A stretch of 63,983 nt of DNA, filler included, from Rhizaria sp. SCN 62-66 (Eukaryota), in NCBI GenBank assembly GCA_001724265.1. It is 4 parts of 4 records of this genome, joined end to end, with 100 filler letters (N's around TTAATTAATTAA, not from the genome) between each part and the next. Parts side by side here need not be neighbours in the genome. Positions count along the whole stretch, not along the records: positions 39,290 to 58,628 come from MEDY01000466.1; 3 more parts are not named here. One strand, written 5' to 3'. Below, piece by piece: positions 19,176-58,728 of the stretch (the first letter of the stretch is position 1; every line of letters begins with the position of its first letter). A program made the translations under genes and the position numbers. The notes under the pieces were generated by a model, which was not told where the DNA came from, made no database searches, and saw only the letters and a program-made list of their open reading frames with translations.

Positions 19176-22100
19176 TCAGTCGTCACTGTCGCTGCCGCCG
19201 CCGAAGCCGCCGCCGAAAGATGCCGCGGCGGCGCCGGGGGCGCGCCTGCGGACGAGGACGACCTCGTCTAGCTCCATTTGCAGCGCCGGCTGCGCGCCGC
19301 TCAGTGCAGGCATGTCCCAGTCGGCCTTCTTGCACTTGCCCTCCGCCGCCGCCGCGGCCGCGGCGGCAGGAGACGGCTTCGCACCGCCAGCGCCAGCGGC
19401 ACCGTCGTCGTCGTCGTCGTCGTCGCTGTCGTCGTCGTCCGAGTCCTCTGCCATGCGCAGCTCGTAAAGCGCGGCGTCGAGCGCGGCGAGCGCAGGCTGC
19501 CGCTGCTGCTGCTCGTACAGCAGCAGCGCCAGCGCCACCACGTCCGCGTTGCTCATGTGCGACCACACGGTGACGGGCAGCGCGCGCGCGTGCGGAGGCA
19601 CCCACACCTGCAGGCGCCGGCCGCGGCCCGTGCCGGCCCCGGCGCCCGCCGCGCCCGCGCCGCCCGCGCCCGCGCCCGCGCCCGCCGCGGCANNNNNNNN
19701 NNNNNNNNNNNNNNNNNNNNNNNNNNNNNNNNNNNNTTAATTAATTAANNNNNNNNNNNNNNNNNNNNNNNNNNNNNNNNNNNNNNNNNNNNGCCGCCGC
19801 CGCGAGCTCGGGCTCCGGCGGCGGCGCGGGCGGCGGCAGCGGCGGCGGCGGCCGAAGCCGACAGTACCGGCTCCTGCACCTGCGCCTTAACGCCCAGCGC
19901 GGCCAGCCCGCCCACCAGCGCCAGCATCGGCGGCGCGGCGGTCACGGCGCCCGCAGTCGCGCTCGCAGAGGCAGACGCGGCGCTCGAGCCGGAGCCGGGA
20001 GCGGGGCTCCCCGCGGTGAGCGCGTGGCCCGCGCCGGGGCCCGCGAGCGTGGCCAGCGGCACGGTGACGGCGTCGAGCGCGAAAGGCCGCACGCGCGCGT
20101 GGCCCTTGGCGACGGCGGCGGCGAGGCGCTTGCGCTCGAGGTCGAGCCCGCGCAGCGCGGCGGCGGCGAGCACGTGCGCGTCGCCCAGGCGGCGGGGGGC
20201 CTCCTGGCTGCACACGGCCGCGAGCAGCTGCGCCGCCGCGGCGGAAGCCGCAAGCGGCGACACCGTGCAGCTGACGGGCGGGAAGCCGGCATAGCCGCCG
20301 CTGGTGTAGTGGCTACCGCTGCTGTGAGCCGCGGAGAGCGTGACGTCGTTGGTGAGCGCAACAGCGCGGAGCAGGCGGCGCAGCGCGGTCACAGTCCGGG
20401 CCTTGGCTGCAGCGGCGTCGCCGTCCGCTGCGAACGCAGAAGCCGAGCCAGCAGCGTCGGTGCTGAGCGAAACAGCACATTCAGCGATTGTGCCCGTCGC
20501 ATGGGTCGCAGCGGCAGTGGCGAGCTCGAGCGGACACAGCACCGCTGCGCGCACGAGAGCCGCGTAGACGGCGTCGCTCACGCTGTCGCCCGCACCGGGC
20601 GCAGCACCGCTCGCCGGGGCAGGAGCGGCGACAGCGGCGGTCGGCGCAGCGCTGGCTGCGTCGGCCACCGGGGTCTGCGTCGGCTGCGGTGCACTCAAGT
20701 GCGCGTGCAGAGGCGCAGGGGACCACGGCGAGGCGGGCGTGGTCAGCGCGAGCGCGAATGCAAGGAGTGGATTGCGGGACGCCGCGAGGTGCAGCGCCGC
20801 GTCGACGCTGAGCACAGCGCCGCCCCCGGTGTTGCCGCTGCCGCTGACAGCGTCACCGTTCGCCCCAGCAACCATCGCCGTCGTGGTGGGGGCGACTGCG
20901 GTCTTGCGGGCAGCGGCCGCCTTGCCCTTGCTGCCCGCTTTCGCGCTGCCAGTGGCGGCCGCGATGCTGCTGCTGATGCTGCTGATGTTGTTGTTATTGG
21001 CGGGATTGGCGGCGGCGGCGGCAGCTGCGTCAGAGTCGGACTCGGCGTCGGACTCCGAGTCCGAGTCGGAAACCAACAGGCCTGTGGCCGCCGCGGCCGC
21101 CGCGAAGGCAGCTGAGATAGCGTTGCGCTTGACGCGTTGCGCAGCGGCCTCGGCTGTCTCAACGGGCTCAGCTACAGCAACAGCGTTCTAGACATCGGTC
21201 TCAGCGGCTGACGCAGCAGAGGCTGACAAAGCAGTCGCAGTCGCGGGGACGTCGACGTCAACCATCGCAGCGTCGGCTGTATCTGCGCCAGCGGCAACGT
21301 CGTCGCCGTGGCTACCACTGCCGCTGCGAGCGTCCGCGGCCATCGCGGCCTCGGGCGGCGGCGAGGTGGAAGGCGTAGTCACCTCCGAGTCCGCCATCGC
21401 GACACCTCCAGCGCCGGAAATGGAGAGGTCCGCGCCCGCCGCAGCGCTGCCGTCGACGCTGTTGCTGCGGCTCATGCCCTCGGTCAGCAGATCGTCCCCG
21501 CCGGCAGCACCCGCGCTGGTACTGCTGGAGCCAGCGCCGGCGCCTGCAGCAGTCGCGGTCCCGCTGGCGCTGGCGCCGGCAGCAGTCTTGGTAGCCTTGG
21601 CGCCCTTGCGCGCGCCGGCCGCGCCTGCCCCGGCCGCGCCGCCGCTGCCGCTGGCGCGCGCGGCCTGCGCCTGCGCCTGCGCTTGTGCCTGCGCCTGTGC
21701 GCGCGCCAGAATCAGCGCCGCAGCCTCGGCCTCGGCGGCGGCGGCGGCGGCGGCGGGCGCGGGGGAGGCCGCGGCCGCGGCCGCAGCGGCAGCGGCAGCG
21801 TCTGACGCCAACAGCGAGGCAGAGACAAGCGCCGCGGCGGCTGCGGCGGACGCGGCGGAGGCAGCGGCGCCGGAGCCGGCGTGTTGTTGCAACTGGAGTT
21901 GCAGCTGGAGCTGCTGCTGGTGCTGCGAGGGCAGCGACGGCCCCACCGCCGGTGCCTGGCCCTGAGACAGCAGCAGGAGCAGCGGCGGCAGCGACGGCGG
22001 CGGCGGGGGCAGCCACAGCGCGTCGCTGAAGCCGCTGCTCGTGCCCATGTGACTGTGGGTCGAGTGACCGTGAGTAGGCTGCCCGGAGGCGCTGCTGCTG

Positions 22101-24010: not shown

Positions 24011-25281
24011 GCTGGGCCTGGCCTGGAGTCGAGAGCGAGAGGCGCTGAAGGGGCTAAGGGAAGACTGTGAGCAAGGAATGGATGCTTTGGAAGCGGTCTA
24101 TGGGTGAAGATGAGCTGCACAAAAAACATAATTCAAATATGGTGTAGGTTAAAAAGCGGAGTTTCGCGAAATCTTGGTGATTTCCGGTGGAATCATTAGA
24201 TTCTCACCCCATAGAGCGCGGAGATAGGTTCAAGGTCAAGTCAAGACGAACAGAGTGCCGAGGACCCTTAACGGCGCACCAGCACTGTCAGACTTCCGTC
24301 AATACAAATCTCATTATTACCGGCATATAGACGGCAGGAATGGCAATTGTTGCAAAAACGCACATATTTTTCACGACAATGTACGCGGCATGCAGAGAGG
24401 GAAATGGTTGGGCGGCGACCTATCGCGGAAGAAAAAGTTTTCGGCCCGACTTTTTTGCGAACCGCTCGTGTCAAGTCTCCGACCGCTAGATATCACGCTT
24501 GTTCAACACGTTCTCGTGTATATTTAGTGAAATAATGATGTTCTGAGAGTACCATATAGGACATCTACTGTTCTTCAGTTATTGTTTATCTATACTCGTG
24601 CAACTATGATCTGTACCACACCCCTGCATCTCCGAGGCGACTAGCCTCAACGCGTGTCAACTCAATACACAAACGTGACTCGACATCTATATAAAGCATT
24701 GGAGACATAACCAAGCAACGCTTTGAGATAGCATAACGATTTGTAACTTGGGAGTGTGTTATTTACTCTCCAGCATCCCGCAGCCCCGTGCATGTTGGTC
24801 GGACAGAGCTAACGCAGACAGCTGCTTGATCATGTGCCATTAGTCTGAACCTAGCCACAGAGCATGTGTCGTACCGATAGTGCATCTAAAACATACTCTC
24901 AGGTGTGTAGCATGTGCTATAGTACACTTTTACTTTTTACCACCGCGCGTGACAATCATGAATACGTTCATCATATCTCTTGTTACGACACTCCGCACCG
25001 CTTCTGCAACTCGCCGTTGATGTTCCATCTCTCAACCGGATTTCTCCGTCCAAGTCTTTTAGACAATCACGCCGGTCTTCCGCCGTATACCTGAATAGGT
25101 CATTTGTAATATTTTTTTGGCTACACTCCGCTTGCGCCTGACCACAGCGTCCCAGCTCACTTCCCCCGCGCCCCCCTTCCTCCTCACTGCCCCTCTGCTC
25201 CCCAGCACAACCACAACCCCCTGCCTTCGAACAGCCTTGCTCGCCCGCTCTCGCTCTGCATAGAGTCTGTCTCTTGCCGCG

Positions 25282-31269: not shown

Positions 31270-33677
31270 ATGTCAGAACTGGTGCTCTAGGTCCGTGCCA
31301 GCCTCCACGCCGCCATCGCCACTGCGCTCTCCGCGGCGCCGGACACGAGCGAGGCAGCGAAAACGTTGTTTGATGCTGTCCAGCGCTTTTTTACGTAGTG
31401 CCCCGGAGACGCTACGCGTGAAGTGAGTCTTACTTGTCTCAATACGGGCGTTGTCGACTGGTTGCTTATGGTGCTCGCACAAGATACGGCACTTCTTGCT
31501 GCCCATGTCAGGGATATGACGGAGGAATCTGAGCCCGACGACAATCAAGACGCGGAAGATGAGGAGGGCCAATATCTGAATGACATGCAATTAAATGCCA
31601 AGATCTCTCTTTTATCGATCTTCGCGAAGGAAAGTCTGATCGCTCGGTCTCTGATTATCAACCACAGGGCTCAAGGCGCGCACAATGCAGACGCTAACAC
31701 AACTACAACCAAGACTGGGCAGAGTTGCATTGACACCGATTCCCCAGACGTCGCTTCACTGCTGCTACCGGTTCTTCAGCTGCGTTTTTCTCCCTACATC
31801 GTTGCAATGGCGTTTGATGTCCTCGTGGTCGCCTTCAACCAGAGCACGAGGCTGCAGCAGCAGCGTCTGCTCGATCTGGGATACTTACAGCTCTTGTGTG
31901 GTCGTCGTTGTACGAAGGCGACCCTATCGAACTATGGAATTCAACAACTTCTGCGACACTTGATGGTTTTAAGTGAGGATTACTTCAGCGCCACACCCAA
32001 CATCGGCAGCACCCGCACGAACAGCTTCTCCCGTGCCTCAACGACCGTGAATGATCATAACACGAGCAGCGGAAGGTCTCAAGAGGCAGGGCAGGCGCTG
32101 CCGGCGTTGCCCACCGGCTTATCATACCGTGACCTCATCACGAGAACTGACATTCTCGCGCGCATATCGGCCAGTCTTTGTGGCTACGACATGCCGAAGA
32201 TTATTATCTCGCTGTATAGCCCTAAACGCGCAGATGTGAATTACTTAGGCCTCATTGAATCCGATTCTGAACATTTACGCGCTGTTCTCCAAGGCCACTT
32301 GATCGACCCAGTTTCAAACTTAACCTCGTTTCTCCGCAGCATCATGACTGCGGCGCACAGTAACACCGGTCACGGCGCGGGCGACGCGGCCAAGGCTATT
32401 TTCAACAGCCATATAGCCTTTAGGCGGCTTGCGATGCACGTCTGCTCTGTAGCTGAGTCCAGCGCGTCTGACTGGGGCATGGCGTGGTGTGAGGAAGACG
32501 ATGAAAGCCACGACACTGCAAAGTACGTCACGAGTTTGCACAGTCATTAGTCACGATCATATTGGGATTGAACACAATAACGACGAAATCTATGCAAAAC
32601 CCGCGAGTATTTTCAATGTGAAACGCATTTAAATTGCAATTATGCTTACGCTGCTTCTGTTGTGTCTAAATTGCCTAAATTTTAAACAGGGAAGTGCTCA
32701 AGGTGCTCGCAGCAGTTGCGACCCTGGGACTGAGCTACCAAAGGGCGGTGTTAAGCTGTTGCGCTCTGCACGCAGTGTATAAGTACATCGCTGAAGCACC
32801 TACAGCAAGTATGAACCTGGAAAACAACAGGTGGCGTGTTGCCAAGGCGACGATCACTGTATTCACCAACTTGCTGGCACATGCAAACATCTCAGAGAAT
32901 GGTAATGCTACCTGTGACAAAAATGCGAATACTAGCCGTAACACGGGCGAGTGCAATACTGACGGTTGGGATCACTGTTTTAACGTAGCTTGCTTTGCTG
33001 AACAGTTTAGTGTCGTTCGTTACCTCACCAGGACTCTTGTCGCTGCCGTCAGCAAGGGACCGGAGGCTCCGAAAACGTTGATTAAACACGTGGTGGCTCT
33101 TCTCTTTGTGTTTCTGACCTTGAACAATACGAACCTCTCGCGTGTACTCCAGAAGAAGGTAATGGTGACACTTAACACGTTGTCATCTCTTGATTACAAC
33201 TCTGACTTTTTTAATGTGACTGATGTGACTCTTATTTCTGCGGCAGGTGGCGAAAATGACTGCAGCAACAGCAACGGCGAGGGCAGTGCGTCCCTCGGCG
33301 ATGCCGACCCTGAGGCCGGTGACTGCGGCGGCGACAGCGACTTTGACGCACTGCTCATGGGCCAGAGGGGGCGCCGGTGGAAAGCCATTGACTGTGCGGA
33401 TCCAAAGCACGACGCCAACGGCAATTACATCGGCGGCTACGACTGCGTCTTCAAGTTCCACCTCTACACCGATGACGATGTGAATGCGCTCGACCAGTTC
33501 CTCGATGCCGGCGGCCTGGACGCACTGGCACGGATCAAGCTGACTCCGAACATTGGAGACCGTCGGCTAACCGCTCGCGATATCAGTGTCGTCAGGTACA
33601 GCAGCAGCACTGGATTTGAGCAGTACCGTAATTTGTGCAAGTTCTTGGCAGAGTGTGGCGAGGTCGTGAACAAATGA
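31270..33677 (+). CDS. Armadillo/importin-alpha-like helical repeat protein, about 746 aa, with in-frame TAG codons at 31288 and 31396; join(31270..32522,32690..33677)
   Basis: ARM-like segments: CLNTGVVDWLLMVL, QQRLLDLGYLQLL, QRAVLSCCALHAV, QFLDAGGLDAL. Phase-2 GTACGT...CAG intron at 32523-32689 joins the two ORFs. Stop is TGA. Start is uncertain: ATG 31270, or ATG 30991 which adds a third TAG at 31267. Confidence 0.6.
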
Positions 33678-39189: not shown

Positions 39190-39289
39190 NNNNNNNNNNN
39201 NNNNNNNNNNNNNNNNNNNNNNNNNNNNNNNNNTTAATTAATTAANNNNNNNNNNNNNNNNNNNNNNNNNNNNNNNNNNNNNNNNNNNN
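39190..39289. other. Artificial assembly gap spacer (44 N + TTAATTAATTAA + 44 N)
   Basis: Same 100-nt structure as the other spacers; different genes lie on either side. Confidence 0.98.
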
Positions 39290-41486: not shown

Positions 41487-44400
41487 TCAGAAAGCGAACT
41501 CGAGCTTGTCCTTACGCCCCTCGGCGTCGAGCGGCGTCCAGCCTACCACAGCGCCTTCGCGCACGTGCTGGATAGACGCGCGCGCCAAACTGCGGCGCCG
41601 GCGGTTGGCCACGATCGAGACCGCAATCACGTGCTTGTCCAAGCGAGCACTGTCGTCACTGGGGCTGCTCTCCGTATCAGTCGAGATATTACCAGTCGCA
41701 GAGTTATTATCAGTTGCAGCCCCCGCGCTCGCGCGACTGACGGCCTTGACGAACGCCCCATCCCTGTGCTTGATTGCGCCGAGCGCGCGCTGCACGTCCC
41801 CACGGCCGACGACCGAGGCCGCGATGGACGCCGAGAGCTGTTTCATGCGGCGGCCATAGCTGCGGAGCTCGGCCAGCGAGCCCTCGTCGATGCCCACGGT
41901 CAGCGACACCACGAACATCGGGCCCGCGCCGTGACTGCTGCCATTGCTGCTCTCGCTGCCCGCCGCAGGGGCAAAGTCGCCAGTTGGCGGGGCTGCTGTG
42001 CGCGCCGCAGTGTTGACCATGGGCGGGAACGAGACGATCCAGGGCCCGTCGAACGGGACGCCCTCGACAGGCGCCGCGGCCTCCGTGACGAGGCTCGCGC
42101 TGCTCAGGTCAACGCTCGTCCCTTCGGGCGCGTTCGCGGCCTGTGACAGGAGGCTCTTGAGGCGCTGCTGCCGCTGCAGGTGCTGCGTGTTGACAGCGCT
42201 CGCGTGCTCGCAGCGCGCGCCCAGCGACGCGCAGAGGGCGCGCAGCACGCGCGCGTCGTGCTCCTCTTCGCTCAGCCCCGCGCGCACGGCGCCGCGGTCC
42301 TACGAGATAGCAAGTAATGATGTGATGCAACAAATGTAGAATTATGAGAAAGTGAGAGATATCGATGTCAGCTGAGGTTGTAGATAAGATAAACATTGGA
42401 CAAGGACAATTGTTGCGTAGTAGTCAGTTTCAGTCTCATGACGGGTTTGTGGGTTTGTAGCGTACCTGGTCGGCGAGGTCGCGCAGCAGCCAGTCGAGTC
42501 GGCGCAGCAGAGGCTCCGGGTCCCCAGCCCGCAGCGCGGCCGCTACGGCCCGCGTGGCCTGGCCGTCGCGCGCGCGCAGCCCCAGGTCGCGGACCGTGGC
42601 GGCGAGCAGCGGGCCCTGCAGCGCGCTGCGCAGCTCCGTGTTGGGCAGCGACAGGTACAGCACGTCCACGGGCGGCTGCGCGGCGCTCGCGCGGGGCCCG
42701 CGGTACGAGACGCCCGAGCGCGGGCGTCCGCGCGGGGCCGTGGCCAGCGCCGCGGCCACGGCGTCGGGCGCCGCTGGCAGCAGCCCGCTGCCGGTGAGCG
42801 CGAGAACACCCGAGTAGAACAGCTGCACTGCCGTTGCAGCGCTCAGAGAGTCGCCACCCGCGTCGACGTTATGGACCGGGGCGCTGATGTTGCTATTGTC
42901 ATTAAGCAGGAGCCCGGGCCCAACGGTCGCCGAGATGTACGCCGCCGAGGCCGCCGACGCCGCGGTATCAGGCTCGTCGTCGCCCTGCTTGCCCGCACAC
43001 ACGCCACTCGCGGGCACAGCGGCCGTGGTGCGCACAAGGTCCGCGGGCGCGACGGGCGTGCGCTGCCAGAGCGCGCGCAGCTGCGGCAGCGGCAGCTCGG
43101 CGAGGCGCGGCAGCGCGGCCCGCGCAGCGACGGCGCGCGCCCACACAGGCGCAAAGCTGCCGCTCACTAGCGCTGCAAACACCGACGGGTAGCTCGCCGT
43201 GGGCGCCACGCGCAGCGGCGCGAACGTGCCCTGGACCGCGCCCGCGCCTGCGTTTGCGCTCGCAGCGGGGATGCCGCTCACGGAGGCCTGCTTCTGCCCC
43301 CGCGATCGCGGCGGCGGGGCCAGCCTGGCCGTGAGCACGGCGGCGTCGGGCAGCGCGGGGTAACGGAAGCCACCGCAGCGGTCCATGAGCACAACCGCGG
43401 CCTCGACCGGGGTGAGACGCAGCTGTTCCGCGAGCCTGCGCCACGGCGCGCCGGGGGCGCGGTCCGCGGGCGTCGCGCCGTGCGGGTCCGCCAGCGCCGC
43501 GGCGTCGGCCGCCGACACGCCCAGCGCGGCCGCAGACAGCGGGCTGAAGGTCGCGTCCACGAAGCCTCGCTGGGACGGCTTTGCACCGGCACTCACACTG
43601 GCGTTGGTGCTCGCGGTGACCTCGCTGCTGGCGGCGAACAGGGGCACGAGAGCGGGGCCGGCACGCTGCACGCCGACGACCACGGCGTGCGACAGCGCAA
43701 ACTGCTGGTGTTTCTGCTGCGCGCGCGCAGTAGCGCCGGGGCCGGACTCGCGCAGCGGCAGCGCGGCGGCCGCGCGGAGGCCGCGGAGGAAGGACGCGAC
43801 AAGGAACGCGGCCGCCTCGTGCTCCCGCGCCACACCCGCGCTCACCGCGCCAGCAATCGCTCCCACGCCTCTCGCGCGCGAGCGGTGGCACGTCGAATCA
43901 GAGCCGGAGACGGCGTCGGCGAACAGCATCGCGTCCGCCTCAGTCTCAGCGTCGGACCCGAGGAACCCGCGGCCGACCGCGCCGCCGCTGCCGCCAACAC
44001 AGTCGCCCCAATCGCCGCTGCAGTGCTCCTGCTCCATCTGCTCCATGAGGGGCACGAGCAGCGGCGCGTCGTAGTTGTCCACCAGCACGGCGACGGGCCT
44101 GCCCCCGCCGAAGCGTGCGGCGGCCGCGACGAGGCGCGTGACGCGGCCGGCCAGGTCGCGGCGGCGCGGCGTCAGCCCCTCGCCCCACAGCGCGCTCACA
44201 GCGCCGTTCACGCCGCCCACCACGCTGTCCAACGCCAGGGCATCACGAGGAGATGCGGCACCCGCGCTGGCGCCGTAGAGGGCCTCATAGTGCGCGAGCT
44301 GGCCGTCGAGCAACGCAAAGGCCGCTGCGGCGCGTGAGGCGGCCTCGGCGCGGCCCGTCGCAGACTCGCAGCCGGACTGTGACGCCCACTCGCGGGCAGC

Positions 44401-47193
44401 GGCCACGCCCGCGGCCACGGACGCGGGCTCGGCAGCGGCCGCGGCGCAGAACACTGCGCTCTCCCCGTGCTGCTGGCGCTGCTGTTGCTGTTGATTGAGA
44501 GAGTTCTGCGCAGAGTAGCCGACGCCCAGCCCGAGCACCGCGCCGCTGCCGATCGCGGCGGCGGCGTCGCTGCCGCCGGATGAGTGTTGCGTCGCCGCGA
44601 CGAACGGATCGTCCGCGCGGCCCAGCGCGGCGAAGTCGAACCGCAGCACGACGCGCTCGTGCCACGGCCACTGCACGTCGCCCGCGCTGCTGCTGCTGTT
44701 GTTGTTCGAGACATCCGCGCCCATGCTCACGTCCATGGCGTTGTTGTTGCTGTCGACTGCCAGGCCGCGGAAGAGCTCCCTGCGGCCCGCGAGCAGCGCC
44801 TCTGCGAGCGACAGCAGCGTCGACTTGCCAAACCCGGGCGGGCGGTGCACGACGCAGAGCGGGGCGGCCGTGAGCAGGCGCGCCGCGGCGAGCGACTTAT
44901 CCACCACGGCGCAGCGCGCCGCGCGCAGGGCGGACCAGTGGCGCGAGGCGGGCACGGCAGCCAACGGCAGGCAGGGACCCGCGCGGCGCGGCGGGCGCGG
45001 GAAGGCCGTCGACGGGAACGACGTTGAGAGGAACAGCGGCATCGCGAGCCCACTCATGCTCGCACTCGTGGGTACGGGTACTGGGGGAGCACGCGCCGCC
45101 ATGGGCGACGACGCCGCGGACACTGGCCTCAAGTTGACCGCAGCTGCCGCGGCGGCTGCAGCGGCGGCGGCGGCGGCGGCGGCGGTGGAGAGGTGCGCGT
45201 GCGCTGCAAAGTCGGCGACTGTGTCTCGCTCGGCCGCGGGCACGGCGCTCAGCGGTGGCACGCACTGAGGCGGCGCGCTGGCACATGGACTGGCAACGGC
45301 ACTGACGCGGCTGCCGTCCGCCGCAGAGGCGGCTTGCGCACCACGCGCAGCAGAGTGGCAGTGGCTGGAGGAGTGACCGTGGGCCGCGGAGAGCGCGGCA
45401 GAGGGGAAACGCTGGCTGAGTGCGAGCTGCGACGGGTGCACGCCGCCGGTGGAGCTCGGAGTGAAGCGGCCGCTGTGGACGCTGCTGCCATTGAATTTAC
45501 CAGCCGCAGCCGCAGAGGGAACAGCGGCCGCAGTGGCGGCAGCGGCCGCGGGCCCACGCCACGGCAGACGCAGCTGCACTGGTTCACCGGCAGTCGCACT
45601 CGGATTCGCATCCTGATTGTGGCCCAGCGAGTCACTCGAAGCCGTCTGAGCAGTCTTTGCGCCATTGCCAGTAGCGCCAGTGACAGTTACCGTGGGCTTG
45701 ACTGTGAGGAGCGGCGGGGCGCCGCGCGGCGCCGCGGGCAGCGCCGGCTGCGTGATCGCGGCCACGGCCGGCGGCAGCAGCGACAGCGCCGGGGACAGCA
45801 GTGACGCGAGCGCCAGGGCGTAGCTCGCGCTCGCCTCGGCGAGCTACGCACCGGCGCTCGCGCCTGCCTCGGTGGCCTCGGCAGCAGCCGTGGCGGTCGC
45901 CACGCGAGCATTGTCCTTGCTCTTGGTTTTGAATTTGCTCGCAGGGTCTCTGCTTGCAGCGCTAAGGGACGTAGTCGCGGACTGATCTTGCTGTTGCTGC
46001 TGCTGCTGTTGCTGCTGTTGAATCGCGAGACCCTTAGACTGTGTCCCCTTTGACGGAGCACCCCTAGACTTCCTCAACGTCGCAGCGCGCTTAGCTTGCA
46101 AGCGCTACTCGCACGGCACACACACTACATTTGAACTCGTCACCGGCGCAGGCCCAGACTCTCCGCGCGCACTGCTCGTGTCCGTGACCGTGTCAGTGAC
46201 CGCGAGCGCGTCAATGACCGTGAGCGCGGCCTGTGCGGCGTGCCAGAGCGGCCGCGGCAGGTACCCCAGCGCCGTGGGTCGGCGGAACTGCAGCTCCGCG
46301 CCGCAGCAGGCGCACGCCGCCACGGCCTCAGTGCGCGGGCCCTCCGCCGCGCCTAGTGCGGCCAGGGCGGGGGACGCGGAGGAGTGGGAGGGCTGTGGCG
46401 AGGGCTGTGACGCGGTTGGCGCGGCTGCGGTGGTAACGGCTTCATGCTCCGCAGCTTGTGCGGTGACGAGTTGCGGCGCGGCACGGTTGCGCTGTTTACG
46501 CGAGGGAAAAGTCACCGGGATCATGTCGCCGTCTTCATCGTCCTGGAGCATCTCCAGGGGACTGCGGGCAGACCTCGCGCCGAAACCGACATTGTGACTA
46601 AGATCGCTGTTGGCGTCGCTGTCAGAGCGCGCGCCAGTGTGTTGCGCGAGCAGCGCGGCCCACTGCGCGCCCTGCGTCTGCTGCTGCACGTGTTGCTGTG
46701 TCTGCGCTTGCGCGGCCTGCTGCTGCTCCCGCAGCAGCCGCGACTATGCCCTGGGCATCGAGAAGAAGCCGGTCGCAATCAGCTTGGCGTTGCGGCCCGC
46801 GTCGGCGGCCAGCAGCCGCGCCTGCAGGTCCGAGTACGCCTCGGGTACAAACCGCGAGAAGTCGCTCGCAGAAGCCGAGTCTGCTGTCCGTTGCTGTAGC
46901 TGTTGCTGCTGATCAGGAGGCCCGCTGCCGCTGCGGGGAGCGGGATCGTTGGCCTTGGAGCCACGAAGCGGCGTTGCGCGAGAGGACGATGACGCGTGCC
47001 TGTACGGCGAGCACACAACAGGACACAACTGCGTCGCCGATGCAGGACCGCAGATGTTGCTGCTCACTGTCACAGTCAGCGAGGGCCGGAGTGAGAGTGC
47101 GCTGACACAGGGGCGCGCGGGACCCAACAGGCGCGCGGAAGGCGCATGTGCGTGCGGGTAAGCGTGCGCCAGTGCAATGAGGCGAGATGCCAT
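41487..47193 (-). CDS. 1846-codon protein: presequence-like N-terminus + YqeH/NOA1-type Zn-finger + bacterial-type AAA-ATPase-like domain + degenerate PD-(D/E)XK-like C-terminus; three in-frame TAGs; complement(join(41487..42299,42466..47193))
   Basis: ORFs 47322-46744, 46689-46105, 46101-45844 and 45765-42436 share one frame and are separated only by TAG. Motifs: CACCGAELQ...P...GYLP...VCVPC; VVDKS; HRPPGFGKST; LFRGLAV; VVLRFDF; VLVDNYDAPL; LFYSGVLAL; LSLPNTELR; ALGAIKHR. Phase-0 GTACGC...TAG intron at 42465-42300. Stop is TGA. Confidence 0.75.
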
Positions 47194-48124
47194 GCTACAG
47201 ACGGCACGACGGCTGGTTGGCGCGGCGGCGTGAAGAGTTTGTTTTACAGTCTGCGGTAGGTTGGCGGCGAGGCGAGTTGAAGGGGATAGACACAGGTTGA
47301 GCAAGTGAGGTTTTTCAGGCATCGTTGATTTACTAAGTATAGTTCATATTTGAGTAGCATAAGTGCACTGACGGATGGTACCAGGCATGGTGATCTGCAT
47401 TGAATGTCCGAAAGAATGAGAGGGCTGATCGACTTCCGCACGGGTTCCGAAAAAAGACGTGCTCGTTTCTTGCCAAGCCCATTTCTTGCATGCTTCATTG
47501 GAGGCGATCTACGTCGCCTCAGCATCCGCCAATTCACGGTTAGGGAAAATCTCAGCACACAAACATGTTGGACTTACATTGGAATTTGATGGTGTACCAC
47601 CATACCTTCGTTCCAGGCCAGGGTACCTGCTCCTGTCATCCATGCGCCATGCCACCGCGCGTGCCTATGGCAATGAACACAATGTGCTGCAGGCGTCTAC
47701 CAGCGGCTGCTTCTCCGAACAAACGATACTTTTACGGTGCTAGATATGATGTTTTAACTAAGTACTTTCTTCTTTGCGCCTGGATGCATCATTCGCGTGC
47801 ATACCACGCTCCCCACTCTGGGTGAGATTAGATATCAAACCTCTGCATCAGTCACACGAGTTGTCTCCTCTTGCCACGCACTGTCAAGAGCGCCAATCGA
47901 TCTATGACTGCGTCTTATAACACAACGCACTTACATTATGTATTGATCTTTCGTGCTTGCTCTATAGCCTCGCTCTTTCGTTCCCTGTAGCCGACAGAGG
48001 TGCGTTGTGATTGGCCTTGTCTCCTGCGCCCTCTTTCGCCCTTTCCCCCGCTCCCCGCTCGTCCCCGCTTACCAGCTGCTTCGTGGTTCCGCCGGTCCGC
48101 CGCCCGCCCGTTCCACGCCCCAGC

Positions 48125-51100
48125 ATGAGCGCTCCTCTCTCCGGCGCTTCTAAACCCGCTGCCGCGAGCGCGAATGCGGGCTCGAACGCCAACGACGACT
48201 TCATGACGATGTCGCTTAACACACGCAAGCATCGCAGCGTCGCCGGCCTCTTCGACAATGCCGCCGACAATGCCGCCGACGCCGACGGCGCGGACGCGAA
48301 CGCGAACGCGCATAACGACAGTGACCATGAAGGCTTCGGCCTCAGCCCCGCGCCCGACCTCGCGCTCGACGAGTCCCCGTCCTCCCTCAACACCTGCTCC
48401 AGCACCGCGAGCGCGCGCAGTGCCAGCGGCGCCAGCAGCACGAGACCGGCACCGGTGCTGCTTGCGCAGGGCGGCGACACGGAGACGGGCGCACTGAGCT
48501 ACCCTAGCCTGAACCGCATCCCCACCGTGCCGTCACCGCACGCAGCCACGCTCTCGCTCTCGCCCTCGGCGGGCGCAGCGGGCGCAGCGGGCGCGGCGGG
48601 CGCGGCGGACGACGCCGACGCCGCGGCGGAGCTGCGCGAGCGCGAGCGCGAACAGCTCCTTAAGCTGCAGCAGCAACATGAGCAGGAGCAGTTACTGCAG
48701 CAGCAGCAGTTGCAGCAACAGCAACGGGCTCGCGTGGTGGAGCTGGCTTTCTCGCACGCGGGCGCGCTGTTTCCGCTGGGTGGGAGCTTCTTGCTGGGCC
48801 GCGGCGACAAGTGCGACCTCCGCATCCCGCGCGACGGCCAGGTCTCGACCGTCCACGCGCGCGTCACTGCGGGCGCTTTCACCGACGTCGGCTCCACCAA
48901 CGGCTCGCTGCTCAACGGCCAGCCCGTCGCGCAGCTCGTCGCTGTGCCGCTCGCAGAGGGCGACGTCGTCACCGTAGGCACCACCGACCTCCTCGTCGTC
49001 GCGGTCTCCGCCGAGGGCGACGGCGACACCGACAATAACGAAGGCAGCGCTGCCGGAGACGACAGCGCGGCTCTGCAGACTACCGCCGCCGCGGCTGCGG
49101 CTTCTGCGGCTGCTGCTGCTGCCTCGGCTGCTGGCGCTGGCGCCGGCGCTGCGGGCGCGGGGGCCGCGGCCGGGGGCGCCCGCGTTAGCGCCTCGCCCGG
49201 ACTTGTCTCCCGCAGCACCGGCCTGCGCCCCATCGTGCCCCGCGGCCTCACCGCCGGCGCTACCCACAACGCGAGCAGCGGCATCGCTGGAGTGTACGGC
49301 GCGGGCGGCACGGTCAACGCCTCCGCGCTCGCCGCCTCCGCTGGCGCCAGCGGCGCCGGCGACGCCGACGCAAGCAGCGACGGGAGCGCGGCGCACGGCT
49401 ATGGCGCCGGCCTCGGCCTCCGCACCGGTGGCATCGGCGGCACTGGCGGCGGCACTGGCGGGGGCGCGGCCGGGCTGGCGGCGCGGCTGGGCTACGACAA
49501 CCGGTCCGGCATCCCCGCGCAGTGGCGGCCCGCCGTCGCGCCAGGCGCCACGGGGCAGGTCTTGGGCACCGCGGCCGCCGCCGCGGCCGCCGCCGCCGCC
49601 GCGGCCGCCGCGGGGAGCTCGCCGCACGAGCGGACTGTGACGGCGCGGCCTCCGATGCCCCACGGCGGGCTGGGCCACCACAACTCGGTGTCGGCCTCGG
49701 CGCTGTCCGCCGCGCTCGCCGGCAACAACAGCAACAGCAACGGCGTCGGCCTTGGTGTCGGTGTCGGTGCGGGCGCGGGCGGCGGCGCTTCCCCCGCAGC
49801 CCCCTTCACGGGCGCCTCCGGCTCCGGCTCCGGCGCTGGCGCTGGCGCTGGCGTCGGCGTCGCGGGGGCCGCGGGCCCCGGTGGCGCGGGCAGTCCCGGC
49901 GCGCTGCCGTCGGTGGACGACATCATGTCTGCGCCCAACGTGCGCGGCGCCGTAGAACAGCTGCGCACGGACCTGCTGCTAGCGCGCCACCGCGAGGCCA
50001 TCTCGCGCAAGAACACCGTGTCCAGCGGCTGGCGCGGCAACGGCGGCGGCGCAGGCTCCGGCGGCTTCGGCTCCATCGGCGGCGGTGGCGAATACGCGCA
50101 GCTGCAGACCGAGGTCGAGGCGCTCAAGTACAACCTGCTCTACGGTGAGCTCTCGGTCGCGCACTTCCAGCCCGACGTCACCGCCGCCACCAACGCAGAG
50201 GGCAAGGACGCGAAGGATGCTGCAAACAAGGACGACTCTGCGACCGCGGCCGCAAGCAAGGAGGTGGCCGTGCTGCGCGGCGTCGCGGCCGCGCTTGCGG
50301 GCCACGGCGCCGCGCTCAACGCTGCGCTGCTCTCCCTGCTGACTGCGTCCTCGCCCGCGCCCGCCCCCGCGCAGGCCGCCGAAGCCCCGCACAGTGCCGA
50401 GGGCGCGGGCGCGGCCGACGCCGTGAGCGTGGACGCGGAGGCGCTAGCGCAGGCGGCAGCGCGCGCGGCGGCTGCGGCCACGTGCGCGACGGCGGCGCGC
50501 ATCGACTGGCCCCGCGTCTGGGCCGTCCCTACCGCGTCCTCGTCATCCTCGTCGACATCCTCTGAGAGCAAAGAGAGCATCGGCTCCGTGGCCGCGACCG
50601 TGGTCGTGACGGCCGAGGCCGGCGAGGGCGCGGGCGAGGCAGCGGCGGAGCAGCTACTGCTTGCCTACGCGCGCTCCGTCACCGCGGGCCAGCTACCCGC
50701 CGCGCTGCCCGTGGCCTGGGCCGCCCCCGCGAGCGCCAGCACCGCCAGCAGCACCGCCGTGTCAGCGTCATCATCATCGTCGTCGTTGTCGATCAGCGAG
50801 GAGGATGAGAGCGAGACCAGCGCCGACGCCAACGCAGATAGCGACAATGTCGACGACAGCGCCGGCGCCAGCGGCAGCACGAGCGCGTCCCGGGCCCGCC
50901 GGCTGCGGCGCGCGCTGGCGCTGCTGGCGCGCGCGCGCAGCGCCGTGGCGGCCGCAGTGACCGCGCCGCCGCACGCGCTGGCCGCCGCGGTCGCCTCGGG
51001 CGGCTTCGCGGCGCACGTGCGCGCGCTGCGGGCCGCGCTCGACGCCGCCGCGGCCGCCGCCGAGGACGCCGTCACCGCTGCCGAGCGCCCCACCGGCAAG

Positions 51101-52105
51101 AGCGCCGGCGGCGAGGGCGCCGGCGGCGAGAGCGAGAGTGATCGCAAGAGCGCCAAGGACGGCGACGACAGCACAGCTCTCAAGGCGGCGCAGGCTGAGG
51201 CTGCGGCCGAGGCTGAGGCTGCGCGGTCCGAGGCCGCGGTCGCCCGCAGCGAGGCTGCCGCGGCCAAGGCTGAGGCTGCGGCGGCTGTGGCGGCCAAGGC
51301 TGAGGCCGAGGCCGCGCGGGCCAAGGCGCAGGCGGCGCAGGCGGAGGCCGAGGCTGCCCAGTCTGACGCCGAGAAGGCCAAGGCTGGCGCGCAGAAGGCG
51401 CAGACTGAGGCGGAGAAGGCTAAGACTGAAGCCGAGAAGGCGAAGGCTGATGCTGACAAGGCCAAGACCGAGGCTGAGACCGCTGCGGCGGCGCTGCGGA
51501 CGCAGCTGAGCAGCGAGAGCAAGCTCCGTGAGCAAGCCGAGGCCCGCGCTGCCGCCGCCGAGGCCGATGCCAAGGCGCAGAAGACCAATGCAGACAAGGC
51601 TGCCGCCACCGCTGCCGCCGCCGCCGCCAGTGCGAGCACCAAGGCTGCCGCGAGTGACGACGGCAGCAGCAGCAAGGACGCCGAGCTCGCCGCGGCTCGC
51701 GCGGAAGCCGCGGCGGCGCGCGCCGAGGTGGCGGCCGCGCTCAAGGCTCAGGCCGCGGCCGACACGGCTGCCGCTGCGGCCGCGGCGGCGACGGCGGCGG
51801 CGCAGCGGGAGGTCGCCGAGGCCCAGGCCGCGGCCGAAGCGGCGCGCGCCGAGGCCAAGGCCGCCAACGGCAAGGCTGCAGCGGCCGCGGAGGCCGAGGC
51901 GGCGGCCAACAGGCGCGCTGCCGAGGCCACTGCTGCCGCTGCCGCCGCCGCCGCCGCCGGCGCCACTGCGAAGCCTGTGGCTGATGACAAGGCTGCCGAC
52001 AAGAGCGGGATCGGTGCGTTGTCGCCGTTCGTGTGGATTGCGGCGCCGGTCATCGCGCTGGTTACAGGCGCGATCGGTTTCCTTACCGGCAGGAGCTGGC
52101 GGTGA
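48125..52105 (+). CDS. FHA-domain, coiled-coil, tail-anchored membrane protein (SLMAP/Far9-like architecture), 1326 aa
   Basis: FHA motifs LLGRG, VSTVHARV, DVGSTNGSLLNG, LAEGDVVTVG. Long AEKAK-type heptad coiled coil. C-terminal TM helix (FVWIAAPVIALVTGAIGFLTG) followed by RSWR. Single exon; stop is TGA. Confidence 0.8.
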   Translation: MSAPLSGASKPAAASANAGSNANDDFMTMSLNTRKHRSVAGLFDNAADNAADADGADANANAHNDSDHEGFGLSPAPDLALDESPSSLNTCSSTASARSASGASSTRPAPVLLAQGGDTETGALSYPSLNRIPTVPSPHAATLSLSPSAGAAGAAGAAGAADDADAAAELREREREQLLKLQQQHEQEQLLQQQQLQQQQRARVVELAFSHAGALFPLGGSFLLGRGDKCDLRIPRDGQVSTVHARVTAGAFTDVGSTNGSLLNGQPVAQLVAVPLAEGDVVTVGTTDLLVVAVSAEGDGDTDNNEGSAAGDDSAALQTTAAAAAASAAAAAASAAGAGAGAAGAGAAAGGARVSASPGLVSRSTGLRPIVPRGLTAGATHNASSGIAGVYGAGGTVNASALAASAGASGAGDADASSDGSAAHGYGAGLGLRTGGIGGTGGGTGGGAAGLAARLGYDNRSGIPAQWRPAVAPGATGQVLGTAAAAAAAAAAAAAAGSSPHERTVTARPPMPHGGLGHHNSVSASALSAALAGNNSNSNGVGLGVGVGAGAGGGASPAAPFTGASGSGSGAGAGAGVGVAGAAGPGGAGSPGALPSVDDIMSAPNVRGAVEQLRTDLLLARHREAISRKNTVSSGWRGNGGGAGSGGFGSIGGGGEYAQLQTEVEALKYNLLYGELSVAHFQPDVTAATNAEGKDAKDAANKDDSATAAASKEVAVLRGVAAALAGHGAALNAALLSLLTASSPAPAPAQAAEAPHSAEGAGAADAVSVDAEALAQAAARAAAAATCATAARIDWPRVWAVPTASSSSSSTSSESKESIGSVAATVVVTAEAGEGAGEAAAEQLLLAYARSVTAGQLPAALPVAWAAPASASTASSTAVSASSSSSSLSISEEDESETSADANADSDNVDDSAGASGSTSASRARRLRRALALLARARSAVAAAVTAPPHALAAAVASGGFAAHVRALRAALDAAAAAAEDAVTAAERPTGKSAGGEGAGGESESDRKSAKDGDDSTALKAAQAEAAAEAEAARSEAAVARSEAAAAKAEAAAAVAAKAEAEAARAKAQAAQAEAEAAQSDAEKAKAGAQKAQTEAEKAKTEAEKAKADADKAKTEAETAAAALRTQLSSESKLREQAEARAAAAEADAKAQKTNADKAAATAAAAAASASTKAAASDDGSSSKDAELAAARAEAAAARAEVAAALKAQAAADTAAAAAAAATAAAQREVAEAQAAAEAARAEAKAANGKAAAAAEAEAAANRRAAEATAAAAAAAAAGATAKPVADDKAADKSGIGALSPFVWIAAPVIALVTGAIGFLTGRSWR

Positions 52106-52451: not shown

Positions 52452-55400
52452 ATGTCTGATTCCGCTTTTGATCAGACGATCTCGACCGAGATCAACGAAC
52501 ATCTCGCGGTACAAGATCTCGTCGCGGACCTAAAGGAATGCGCCACCGAGCTCGCCGCGCTCCACGCCTCCGGTGCCGCGCCCGACCAGTCTGCAGTGTC
52601 TGCACTCAAGGCGCAGCAACTATCTCAGCTTATGCAGCTGCGTTCACACATGATGCTGCTGACCGCGCGCGGCGAGGCCAGCGACGGCGTCAAGGAGCAG
52701 CTGTCAGCGAAGCGCCAGGCTGTCGAAGCGCACCAGCTCAAGCTGCAGAGCCTACTGTACGAGAAGACTCACTTTCTCAAGGAGGCCGAGAAGCAGCGCG
52801 GGCTCAGCGACATCTCCGCCCTGCGTGAGGCCGTCGACGTCGAGCCTGTGACCGACCCCGCGCAAGTCGCGGCCCTCCGCGCGCAGGCCGCCGCCGCTGC
52901 CGCAGCCGCAGCCGCAGCCGCCACTAGCTCCAGCTCCTCCGTGGGCGCACAGCATGGGCCTCAGCGCGCTGCTGCGGCCCCCGTGGTTATGGACGACTCA
53001 ACATCTACTGCAGCTGCAGAGCCGGTTGCTGGTGAGGTTGATGGCGAGGCAGAGATGGACGCAGAGGAGGCGAAGCAGCACCACTTCGACTTGCTCCAGC
53101 TCCAGCACGAGCTCAAGGCCCGCAAACAGTACGTATACGATCACATGGTCACCTATCAAAGCAAGACTCAGAGATTCTGTCGCAATTACCTTTTATTTTT
53201 GTTTATTGTGTCTCTATCCCTTCCGACTCTTATCACACGACATATCTTGCTTATGTCCACTTGCACAGACTTATCTCGGAGGGCAAGCGCCTCGTGTCTC
53301 GCCGCGCCACCGCGCGCCGCCATCTCGAGGGTGCCCAGGACTCCCTCGCGGGGCTCATCAAACGCGCCACGACTTTTGTCCAGGCCGTGTCCACCCTGCT
53401 GCCCGCCCTCACTGGCCCCGCCGGTGGCCGCACCGTCGCGTCCTCCGCTGCCGCCACTACTGGCGCTGGTTCGGTGGACTCCGCCGCGGACGCTGATGTC
53501 GTGTTGGCGGCCGCGGGGGGGGCGCGCGCGCCGCCACAGCCGTTGGCCGCCGCCGCGGCGCTGCTGCCCGCGCCGCTGTACACGCTCTACGCAGGGCTGC
53601 TGTCGGCGCAGCGTGCGGCCGCGGGGACGCGCCGGGCCGTGCTGCGCGCCGCGCGCTGCTTCGTCGTCCCCACGGCCGCCGTCGCGCCCGCGCTTGCGCC
53701 CGCGGAGGTCGCCGCCGAGGCCGCGGCCGCCGAGGCCGTCGCCGCCGCGGCCGCCGCGGACAGGGCGCGCCGCGACGCCGCCGCCGCCCGTAGCGCCGCG
53801 AGCGCTGCGGGCGAGAGCGGCGGACTGCACGACGAGGACGTCTACACGCCGCCACCCGCGCCGCTGGCCCCGCCCGCGCCCGCGGCGGTGTCGCTGGTGG
53901 TGACCGTGAGCGCGGCCGCCGAGCCTGACACGCCGCTCGTGCCCCGCAACGGCCCCTTCGGCAGCAGCAGCAGTCTCCACAGCGGCGGCGCTGCTACCAG
54001 CGGCGCCGTGATGGACGACGACGGTGATGAGCTCGAGGACGCGGGCGCCGAGGACGAGAGCGGGGTTGCCGGCGGCGTGATTGCGGGCACGCTCGCGCTG
54101 CACTTCGCCTATTGCGCGGCGACCGACAGCGTCCACGCACGCCTGCTGCTGCCCCCAGCGAGCGCCGCCGCGAGCGCGTCATCGAATGCGTCTGTGAATA
54201 GTCCGTCTGATCTCTCTCTCGACGCAGATGCGCCTGACGCGCCCGCGGCGAGCTGCCTGTGGGCCCACGCTTCCTCGGGCCCCGGCGGCGCCGCCACCCT
54301 CATGTCCGCGCTCGCCGCGGCCGCCGCGGAGCTGCCCGCCGCCGCGGCGCCGTGGCTCGCTGCGCTGCCCGCGCCCTGGGCCTTCCCCGCTGCGCCGCCC
54401 GCCGCCGCCGCAGCCGTTGCGGCTGGGGCCAGCGCCGCGGCGGTGCCGGTGGCGGCGCCGGCGCCGCTGCTGCAGTGCCGCGCTTCGGCCGCCGCGGACG
54501 CGCGCGTGCTCGCCTGCTTATACCACAACGACACGGGCCTCACGCGGCCCGACGGGGCGCCCCTCGTCGCTCACACTAGCGTCGCCACACAGCCTGCGAG
54601 CGCTGCGGCGGCTGCGCTAGCTGCGGCGGCGACGGAGGAGGGCTGCGACGTGCGCTGGCGCGTGTGCGGCCGGCCGTACCGCTGGCTGCAGTCGCTGTGC
54701 GGCGCCCCCGCGCTGCTCGCGCCGGCGCCCTTCGCCGACTCCGCCGCGCACGCAGCCTCCGCGGCCTCCGCGAGCGCGGGCGGCGCTGGGCTGAGCGGGT
54801 TGCGCGCGCGGTTCGCGGCGTGCGTGCGCGCGTGCCAGGGCCTGAACCTCGCCACCGCGCCCGCGGCCGACACTGCGGGGCTGCTGCAGCTGCCGCCGGC
54901 GCCGCCGCGTCGCATCAGCAAGAGCACAGGCAACAAGAGCGACAAGACCCTGGCGCTGCCGTCCCTGCTGCGGCTGCCGGGCCCCGCGCCCCCGGCGGCC
55001 CCGCTCGCCCTTTCGGCCGACCTGTTCCTGCCCCTCGCCGAGTCCGCCGCCGAGAGCGGCCCCGACGCTAGCGCCGGCGCGGGCGCGGGCGCGACGTCGG
55101 ACGCGGTGGCGGCACTGAGCGCGGCCCGGGTGAGTGCGGCCGACGCGCTGCACCGCGCGGCGGCGCGCGCGCTGTGCCGCGACCGGCTCTGCGCGGGGCT
55201 GCGCGCGCGCACCAGCGCCAGCGCCAGCACCACGGGCGACGTCGTCTACACTGCGCGCGGCAGCAGCCACAGCCATATCCACAGCAACAGCGGCAGCAGT
55301 GCGGCCGCTGCTGCTGACGACGCAGCGACGGTTCGCGTGGTCGCGTCTTCGTTGGCACCGCTCTCCGCGTCCGCGCTCGCAGCGCTGTCTTCCGCAGCCA

Positions 55401-58628: not shown

Positions 58629-58728
58629 NNNNNNNNNNNNNNNNNNNNNNNNNNNNNNNNNNNNNNNNNNNNTTAATTAATTAANNNNNNNNNNNNNNNN
58701 NNNNNNNNNNNNNNNNNNNNNNNNNNNN
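58629..58728. other. Artificial assembly gap spacer (44 N + TTAATTAATTAA + 44 N)
   Basis: Same 100-nt structure as the other two spacers. Confidence 0.98.

Follow-up and report, generated by a model that had tools for sequence, protein, structure and literature searches.

A gene on the minus strand of the Rhizaria sp. SCN 62-66 metagenome bin keeps a single coding frame through three in-frame TAG codons, and we consider it probable that UAG has been reassigned from stop to sense in the bin organism, with genes ending mostly at UGA and also at UAA; the sample is small. The window, the whole stretch of DNA analysed here (63,983 nucleotides, filler included), comprises four contigs of this eukaryotic bin (GCA_001724265.1) separated by spacers (N/TTAATTAATTAA), and binning is the only link among them. 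The bin organism, an uncultured eukaryote with GC-rich DNA and introns, comes from bioreactor/wastewater metagenomes. Read with UAG as a sense codon, the gene would form one two-exon ORF of 1846 codons in which the TAGs are rare sense codons, encoding first an orphan, low-complexity N-terminal part that bears two CxxC motifs and then an AAA-ATPase_like P-loop domain (Table 1).

Table 1. Features of the TAG-bearing gene and other in-frame TAGs of the window
Feature	Position	Strand	Description
Exon 1	42466..47193	-	1576 codons from ATG 47193, three in-frame TAGs inside; GC3 and codon-model coding signal
TAG 1, codon 150	46744..46746	-	context PRA-TAG-SRLLREQQQ; GC3 0.90 in 40 codons before, 0.85 after
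First CxxC (CACC)	46303..46314	-	from translation
Second CxxC (CVPC)	46111..46122	-	from translation; 60 residues after first CxxC
TAG 2, codon 363	46105..46107	-	CVPC, one Glu codon, then TAG
TAG 3, codon 450	45844..45846	-	context AGA-TAG-LAEASASYALAL; GC3 0.97 in following 40 codons
First in-frame ATG past last TAG	45100..45102	-	247 codons downstream; start in the standard-code model
Pfam PF09820 AAA-ATPase_like match	44728..44937	-	residues 753-822, profile 7-76 of 201, P-loop GFGKST included
Spliceosomal intron	42300..42465	-	166 nt, GC 0.40, GTACGC...TAG, phase 0
Exon 2 and stop TGA 41487-41489	41487..42299	-	coding part 42299-41490, 270 codons
Fourth deep in-frame TAG	21188..21190	-	another gene and contig; ORF 19793-24055, cut by contig end
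Two possible in-frame TAGs (31288-31290, 31396-31398)	31288..31398	+	just past putative start ATG 31270, orphan gene

The three TAGs share one minus-strand frame, as an earlier note on this DNA had claimed, and the table 11 pieces between them are likewise those it described: 46744..47322 opens on ATG, 46105..46689 on GTG, 45844..46101 on TTG and 42436..45765 on GTG. Its length of 1846 codons from ATG 47193 was reproduced, up to the TGA at 41487, only once the 166-nt intron was removed. A further in-frame ATG upstream, at 47322, sits where coding signal is absent, and the DNA 3' of the stop is AT-rich (GC 0.30). One X4 contig extends into the intron; no listed contig of X5, the polyA metatranscriptome, lies on it, the nearest being 42011-42264 and 42857-43031.

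The PF09820 match has an E-value of 3.3e-10 and scores 40.5 bits against a gathering cut-off of 26.1, so that a 70-position N-terminal portion of the profile, together with the P-loop, is matched above the curated threshold. Compared with other PF09820 proteins, however, the rest of the 201-position profile is left unmatched, and the window's protein is three times longer, rich in Ala/Gln low complexity throughout and interrupted by an intron. Searches of the C-terminal part found no PDB relative and no NCBIfam match, and no second domain was found there or in exon 2. At the other end, the first ~80 residues contain no acidic residue. Residues 1-560 had no homologues among long proteins, and the N-terminal 558 residues, searched against 1.84 billion representatives, gave two matches, both of them the window's own pieces. 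The TAGs lie in this N-terminal part, where codon bias is weakest: codons ending in A or T (AT3) make up 26% there versus 15-16% elsewhere in the gene.

Coding signal runs through all three TAGs. Under a codon model of the sense frame that had been trained on other genes, this frame scored highest in all four of the segments that the TAGs delimit (149, 212, 86 and 248 codons), with margins over the runner-up of about 18, 57, 25 and 62 bits, respectively. Between 45100 and 47200 the gene's frame holds three stops, all TAG, against 8-25 in each of the five other frames, mostly TGA, and it is the only frame free of TGA and TAA for 700 codons. In non-coding frames of the window's genes, the probability of meeting no TGA or TAA in 450 codons is 0.12 at its most lenient and at most 0.005 in the two shifted sense frames. 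In the 40 codons to either side of TAG 2, the other two minus-strand frames contain 3 and 5 stops. A pseudogene would be expected to carry mixed lesions spread along its length; here we found no frameshift in the TAG region, a single kind of stop, and no in-frame stop in the last 1396 codons.

Throughout the window's genes, the antisense frame whose third codon positions coincide with those of the sense frame contains 99 TAG versus 48 TGA and TAA together in 10,115 codons. Such a frame resembles an ORF broken solely by TAG, and the strand therefore had to be checked before a TAG-only pattern could be taken as recoding. A plus-strand gene with an antisense TAG-only mimic was rejected on this check, as 45100-47200 contains 10 stops (8 TGA) in the partner plus frame and the sense model wins every segment. 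An initial codon-score scan with flank thresholds did not separate the kinds of stop, because antisense frames score well too.

Recoding, which the earlier note had drawn from the three TAGs, is still the interpretation that suits the locus best, but the note's argument that three chance mutations would hardly all yield TAG is weak. With the GC3-rich codon usage of the region, 62-67% of single-base nonsense changes produce TAG, and three of three would do so at random with P = 0.24-0.30; at about 65% per change, an all-TAG set therefore proves little. The case is better argued from the frame and coding signal kept across the TAGs, the absence of frameshifts, the TAG at 21188 and the gene ends of the window.

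Across the whole window, 10,828 confident codons include four in-frame TAGs, in two genes on two contigs, and no TGA or TAA, and a search that penalised the three stop kinds equally returned only TAGs as deep in-frame stops. Along 200 codons on each side of the TAG at 21188, the sense model is ahead by 0.30-0.38 bits per codon. Two further TAGs may lie in frame in the orphan gene at 31270; the 35 codons separating them are coding by score, and a homologue search with this gene recovered only itself. The first in-frame stops after 21 coding segments were TGA in 14 cases, TAA in 7 and TAG in none, a small sample in which about 16 are true gene ends, since several are read-ins to introns. Scarcity and clumping count against reassignment: in-frame TAG occurs at 0.37 per 1000 codons, whereas position-wise composition predicts 7.7 per 1000, it is missing from about 13 other genes of the window, and a 300-codon stretch holds three of the four TAGs (P = 0.0085 if use were uniform). 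So low a frequency would suggest that the reassignment is at an early stage or weakly used. Every TAG-bearing stretch is an orphan, so none of the TAGs stands at a conserved column. The window contains no tRNA gene, no Rfam match and no eRF1 gene. An argument that placed a CRIM-domain (Sin1) ORF at 19179-19691 downstream of the TAG at 21188 in the same gene was withdrawn; the N run between the two is a contig joiner, and they are therefore not linked.

The most serious competing account, which we regard as unlikely, retains the standard code and begins the protein at ATG 45102, giving 1149 codons (879 + 270) that leave the AAA-ATPase_like domain unbroken; the preceding 2.1 kb would then be a recently defunct N-terminal extension with three CAG-to-TAG-type changes or, in a variant, the whole gene would be a young pseudogene. 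The position of that start suits the account, lying 55 codons ahead of the Pfam match and leaving whole the only recognised domain, yet coding signal is strong, and stops are absent, in the 247 codons from TAG 3 to this ATG, and the leader would hold 13 ATGs, counting all frames, before the start. Nor does the region resemble leader sequence: UTRs and introns elsewhere are AT-rich (GC 0.30-0.45), whereas GC here is 0.62-0.78. Decay also fits the placement of the TAGs, none of them beyond codon 450 of 1846 and all in homologue-free sequence with an AT3 of 0.26 versus 0.15, and the odds of an all-TAG set given above are comfortable for random nonsense. Three hits among 147 stop-creating changes, however, correspond to ~6% neutral divergence, or ~128 substitutions, at which the probability of seeing no frameshift is at most 0.014 under assumed substitution-to-indel ratios of 8-20, and each segment still scores highest in one and the same frame. 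TAG is almost missing from other coding sequence, as the standard code would have it, but the second gene, with the TAG at 21188, must then be broken too, and the absence of TAG from all 21 first downstream stops is left unexplained.

Improbable in our estimate is a standard code with leaky UAG, organism-wide or at these sites, in which near-cognate read-through would supply a low yield of full-length protein with no true reassignment. A C after the stop codon weakens eukaryotic termination, and C follows two of the three TAGs in the gene (TAG-CGC, TAG-CTC), but T follows TAG 1 and A follows the TAG at 21188. The rarity of in-frame TAG fits a costly codon; three read-throughs in series, on the other hand, would probably leave a very small yield, and the lack of TAG among the 21 first stops is unexplained unless leakiness has purged gene ends, which would be the first step of reassignment.

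Four introns were identified in the window, of 140-167 nt and GC 0.33-0.40, all starting with GTACG. On the gene strand, 45700-47300 contains no GTACG, and all 166-nt windows containing a TAG have a GC of at least 0.55. Short introns excising the TAGs, the possibility that the earlier note had set against its own reading, thus find no signal of the recognised type across any TAG. Assembly support was assessed on contigs of other runs, among them the DNA runs (X1-X3) and the polyA metatranscriptome (X5). A 1229-nt X2/X3 contig matches 46024-47219 with no differences and includes TAG 1 and TAG 2, and assembly error is ruled out for these two of the three; X2 and X3 are perhaps one data set, because the contig is equal in length and depth in both. 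No listed piece from other runs bridges TAG 3, an absence of cover that counts neither way. Listed X5 contigs at 46125-46395, 46907-47152 and 47285-47400 are collinear with the DNA and fall upstream of or between the TAGs; none bridges a TAG, and pieces stopping short count neither way. Differing letters at the TAG sites were reported in none of four runs, with cover at the sites not guaranteed. That the TAGs never reach the ribosome, through unconventional short introns, RNA editing, or metagenome assembly errors or chimeras, is very improbable: a frame-keeping GT..AG pair of 108 nt can be drawn by eye around TAG 1 and TAG 3 stands without independent cover, but GC3 periodicity continues through that candidate, no intron of the recognised AT-rich type lies over a TAG, the X2/X3 contig carries two of the TAGs exactly, and one X5 contig (46125-46395) joins the DNA without a break.

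Reassignment of UAG to sense would call for a tRNA with anticodon CUA and an eRF1 that has lost recognition of UAG, by analogy with known cases. The codon would then most likely mean Gln, with Leu, Glu and Ser as alternatives; Gln is favoured because of precedent and the one-step route from CAG to TAG. Gln codons are abundant in the gene, and the window's coding set contains 268 CAG codons.

TAG 2 lies beside the second CxxC, in the region the earlier note had pointed out, although one Glu codon intervenes where it had placed the TAG directly after the motif. The 'Zn-finger' label given to this stretch found no support, with no Pfam family matched at E<=5. AlphaFold2, run on 134 residues around TAG 2 in the table-15 reading from a single sequence, returned a low-confidence model (mean pLDDT 50.6), and at that score we discarded the helix it draws across the TAG 2 position as untrustworthy. 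Neither a family match nor a confident four-Cys fold thus marks a C4 zinc finger or zinc ribbon, and what is found is two CxxC motifs. Their pattern, CxxC(G)..LQ..GY.P...CxxC, may resemble that of the zinc finger at the N-terminus of YqeH/NOA1-type GTPases, a candidate likeness unsupported by any tool.

UAG-only nuclear reassignment is known in just a handful of lineages (PMC11687900), with precedents described in PMC5304391 and PMC11687900, and two published cases average 5.4 and 1.6 in-frame UAGs per gene (PMC5304391). A full-text search on UAG code change in activated-sludge eukaryotes found nothing relevant. The uncultured sainouroid Rhizaria sp. exLh reads UAG as Leu and stops at UAA and UGA; 71 of its genes contain 384 in-frame UAGs, many of them at columns where Leu is conserved, and UAA is the stop in 56 of the 71 (PMC5304391). 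Like the window organism, exLh as described there is an uncultured protist known from sequence, with UAG as the only in-frame stop codon and gene ends at UAA or UGA, never UAG; the two may also share a supergroup, a weak hint from a TM9SF tree. In contrast to exLh as so reported, the roughly 16 genes of the window contain four (perhaps six) UAGs, no conserved column holds one, and the stops are mostly TGA (14 of 21) rather than UAA.

UAG is given as Gln, with UAA a stop, in a table 15-like code in Iotanema spirale (Fornicata), Protocruzia and some phyllopharyngean ciliates (PMC5304391 and PMC11687900); in Iotanema, 204 UAGs occur in 126 genes and gene ends are mostly UAA (PMC5304391). Such codes resemble the window in that UAG and UAA are uncoupled in meaning and no gene ends in UAG. 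The window's lineage is nevertheless distinct, being GC-rich with GTACG introns, and Gln, assigned in those codes, is here only a likely meaning. The green alga Scotinosphaera, in which UAG is given as Ser and UAA is still a stop (PMC11687900), offers a similar UAG-only reassignment in a non-ciliate, but the TM9SF protein of the window stands apart from the sole plant sequence in its tree.

In that single-gene tree, a quick one built from 35 of 126 hits and biased in composition, the window's TM9SF protein forms a long branch and falls in a clade that has the rhizarian Plasmodiophora as its single named member, a grouping that is a weak hint of a possible Rhizaria-side affinity. Metagenome contigs were scanned with P0008, a TM9SF relative 73% identical to the window's protein; the best of the 80 loci kept reached 52% identity, and P0008's own contig is therefore absent from the collection. 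A search of metagenome contigs for orthologues of the TAG-bearing gene gave 617 pattern matches and no relatives, and also missed the window itself.

Tentatively, then, the bin organism could be a wastewater eukaryote, possibly rhizarian and unrelated in sequence to sequenced genomes, that is early in a UAG-only reassignment, with UAG gone from gene ends, used at ~0.4 per 1000 codons in coding sequence, and preferring weakly constrained N-terminal regions of poor codon bias. If true, it would give a view, from nature, of a nuclear genome in the capture phase of codon reassignment. Each added UAG-only case puts to the test the proposed coupling of UAA and UAG through eRF1, and a GC-rich, non-ciliate case in which UAG is scarce would bear on how reassignment starts. 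Standard-code gene callers would truncate this organism's genes at TAG; databases list pieces of 192 and 194 amino acids from the TAG-bearing gene as separate proteins.

The minus-strand frame between TGA 47344 and TGA 42436 contains three stops only, the TAGs at 46744, 46105 and 45844. As the earlier note stated, the ORF pieces listed under table 11 start on ATG, GTG, TTG and GTG. With the intron removed, the full 1846 codons were reproduced: exon 1 runs for 1576 codons from ATG 47193, the frame exits coding at a 5′ splice site GTACGC (42465) and re-enters in phase 0 after TAG/G at 42299, and exon 2 adds 270 codons up to TGA 41487. The gene lies on the third contig (39290-58628), and the sole Pfam match of its protein is AAA-ATPase_like (PF09820, residues 753-822). 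Two CxxC motifs are spaced 60 residues apart; the TAG described as immediately following the second zinc-finger CxxC does lie near it, with one Glu between, and the CxxC stretch matched no zinc-finger family in Pfam. We consider it probable that UAG has been reassigned from stop to sense in this organism.

GC3 periodicity in the target frame spans ~46900 to 42466, with GC3 of 0.90 and 0.85 on either side of the first TAG (46744-46746) and 0.97 after the third (45844-45846). When scored with a codon model trained on 13 of the window's other coding segments, the sense frame ranked first in all four segments bounded by the TAGs and ATG 45102. Near the second TAG (46105-46107), the remaining two minus-strand frames are blocked by 3 and 5 stops. 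Across 45100-47200, the target frame has three stops, all TAG, while the other five frames have 8-25, mostly TGA. This six-frame check is valuable because antisense frames that share third codon positions with real genes typically resemble ORFs interrupted by TAG alone and can pass for TAG-recoded genes: window-wide, such frames hold 99 TAG versus 48 TGA plus TAA in 10,115 codons, and one example is TAG-only (see table). At the target, an antisense mimic was rejected: the partner frame on the plus strand is interrupted by 10 stops, of which 8 are TGA, so that strand holds no gene that could produce the pattern.

Confident coding segments of the window (10,828 codons) contain 4 in-frame TAGs, 0 TGA and 0 TAA. 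Beyond 21 coding segments, the first stop reached in frame is TGA in 14, TAA in 7 and TAG in none; in several of these cases the frame reads into an intron. In at least one gene, 28481-30334, high GC persists right up to the TAA, indicating that TAA is a working stop. The TAGs that follow ATG 31270 could be a further pair of sense codons, or may reflect a 6-codon upstream ORF before a later ATG start; the 35 codons between them are GC-rich and score as coding. ATG 31270 is itself directly preceded by a TAG. The 81 codons upstream of gene 25264-28302 are best read as 5′ UTR because they contain no ATG, and they illustrate that moderately GC-rich leaders can appear weakly coding here.

Features of the window, by position along the whole stretch
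Feature	Position	Strand	Remarks
TM9SF/EMP70 gene	6787-8724	+	two exons; eukaryotic gene type
Intron, EMP70	7343-7507
CRIM domain of Sin1 (TORC2 subunit), PF16978	19179-19691	-	E 5.7e-07, above cut-off; ORF reaches contig 1 end
N runs	19693-19792, 39190-39289, 58629-58728		each [44N]TTAATTAATTAA[44N], a six-frame-stop contig joiner
Fourth TAG	21188	-	deep in long Ala-rich ORF, second contig; strong coding signal both sides
Upstream TAGs	25060, 25096, 25261	+	in 81 in-frame codons before gene 25264-28302; 0 TGA, 0 TAA
Two candidate TAGs	31288, 31396	+	after ATG 31270 of orphan gene; gene start uncertain
Intron, gene at 31270	32523-32689
Intron, target gene	42300-42465
Antisense TAG-only frame	47884..51747	-	7 TAG, 0 TGA, 0 TAA in 1287 codons
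Intron, THOC5	53129-53268

Two observations count against plain reassignment. TAG occurs at 0.37 per 1000 versus 7.7 per 1000 expected from position-wise composition, making it ~20 times rarer, and three of the four TAGs are clumped within 300 codons, for which P=0.0085 if TAG were used uniformly. This clump lies where the codon bias of the target gene is weakest (AT3 0.26 vs 0.15), which softens the objection and does not remove it.

The standard code would be kept if the TAGs marked a decaying N-terminal extension or pseudogene, which we find unlikely, although a start at ATG 45102 would retain the only recognised domain. The earlier note held that three nonsense mutations, all to TAG, would be improbable; this argument carries little weight, since 62-67% of single-base nonsense changes in the region yield TAG and three of three has P=0.24-0.30. 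Decay is opposed instead by the reading frame, which is intact across the TAG region. Three hits among 147 stop-creating changes (697 codons) imply ~6% neutral divergence, or ~128 substitutions, with which 4-11 frameshifts would be expected (P(none) ≤0.014, for assumed substitution-to-indel ratios of 8-20). The standard code further requires that a GC-rich leader of 2.1 kb has kept its frame and holds 13 ATGs ahead of the start, that another gene is broken as well, and that TAG terminators are missing by chance.

Leaky read-through of UAG we regard as improbable, and we give least credence of all to the TAGs being removed or artefactual. Four introns, recognised via frame changes and domain continuity, are all 140-167 nt with GC 0.33-0.40, a 5′ end GTACG(T/C) and a 3′ end YAG, a tight and unusual 5′ signature that could aid the prediction of this organism's genes and the binning of its contigs. 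GTACG is absent from the minus strand of 45700-47300, and every 166-nt window containing a target TAG has GC ≥0.55; the suggestion that short introns might remove the TAGs thus found no backing, as the recognised signal (GTACG, AT-rich) was not seen across any of them. One 1229-nt contig, present in the DNA runs X2 and X3, matches 46024-47219 without difference, so the first two TAGs, the only ones it covers, are not assembly slips; X2 and X3 may not be independent, as their contig sizes and depths are identical. Contigs from the polyA-RNA run X5 cover 46125-46395, 46907-47152 and 47285-47400, as well as stretches further along the exons, with none of those listed on the target intron. This cover is consistent with a mature mRNA in which the sequence ahead of the TAGs and between them is retained; among the contigs listed none bridges a TAG, and they show neither transcript ends nor strand.

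Searching target residues 1-560 against long proteins returned no homologue covering a TAG, and 558 residues against 1.84 billion representatives gave two matches, both the window's own pieces (194 and 192 aa). The gene at 31270 likewise returned only itself from the database. Our guess, from precedent and the one-step CAG/TAG route, would be Gln at TAG. Passages of PMC5304391 report UAG as Leu in rhizarian exLh (384 UAG in 71 genes; stops UAA 56, UGA 15) and as Gln in Iotanema spirale (204 in 126 genes); an excerpt of PMC11687900 gives Ser for Scotinosphaera, and between them the two sources also report UAG-only reassignment in Protocruzia and phyllopharyngean ciliates. If true, reassignment here would join these UAG-only cases, set apart from the exLh and Iotanema counts in those passages by very sparse use. 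A full-text literature search returned no paper on UAG reassignment in an activated-sludge eukaryote.

The closest TM9SF relative, P0008 (JGI source, 16.8-kb contig), is 73% identical, all other matches being ≤48%, so a sequenced or assembled relative exists somewhere. In a quick maximum-likelihood tree of 35 of 126 hits, in which query composition deviates from that of the alignment, the query and P0008 share a long branch that falls within a well-supported clade in which Plasmodiophora is the sole named member. The placement hints weakly that the organism may belong to Rhizaria, the supergroup that contains the single protist known to read UAG as Leu.

The three N runs being joiners, the window is four bin contigs (19.7, 19.4, 19.3 and 5.3 kb) placed end to end, and genes that flank a joiner are not adjacent. 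Across it, coding islands of high GC (GC3 0.75-0.9) alternate with AT-rich spacers. Spliceosomal introns and genes for a TLC-domain protein, an MFS transporter, an FHA protein, THOC5 and a THH1/TOM1-3 protein add to its eukaryotic character; no tRNA genes were found in the window, and an Rfam search of it gave zero family matches. Ala/Gly-rich low complexity precedes the Sin1/CRIM ORF at the assembly break. Two metagenome scans detected no DNA from the organism or a close relative. Near-identical DNA occurs in runs whose labels name bioreactor, wastewater and activated-sludge metagenomes; among these is a polyA metatranscriptome. At three positions, contigs of the 2025 runs X4 and X5 carry a different base from the window (42016 A>G, 42082 T>C and 47327 G>A). 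These differences suggest that the samples of another study, ten years later than the probable source sample, contain a slightly different strain of this organism.
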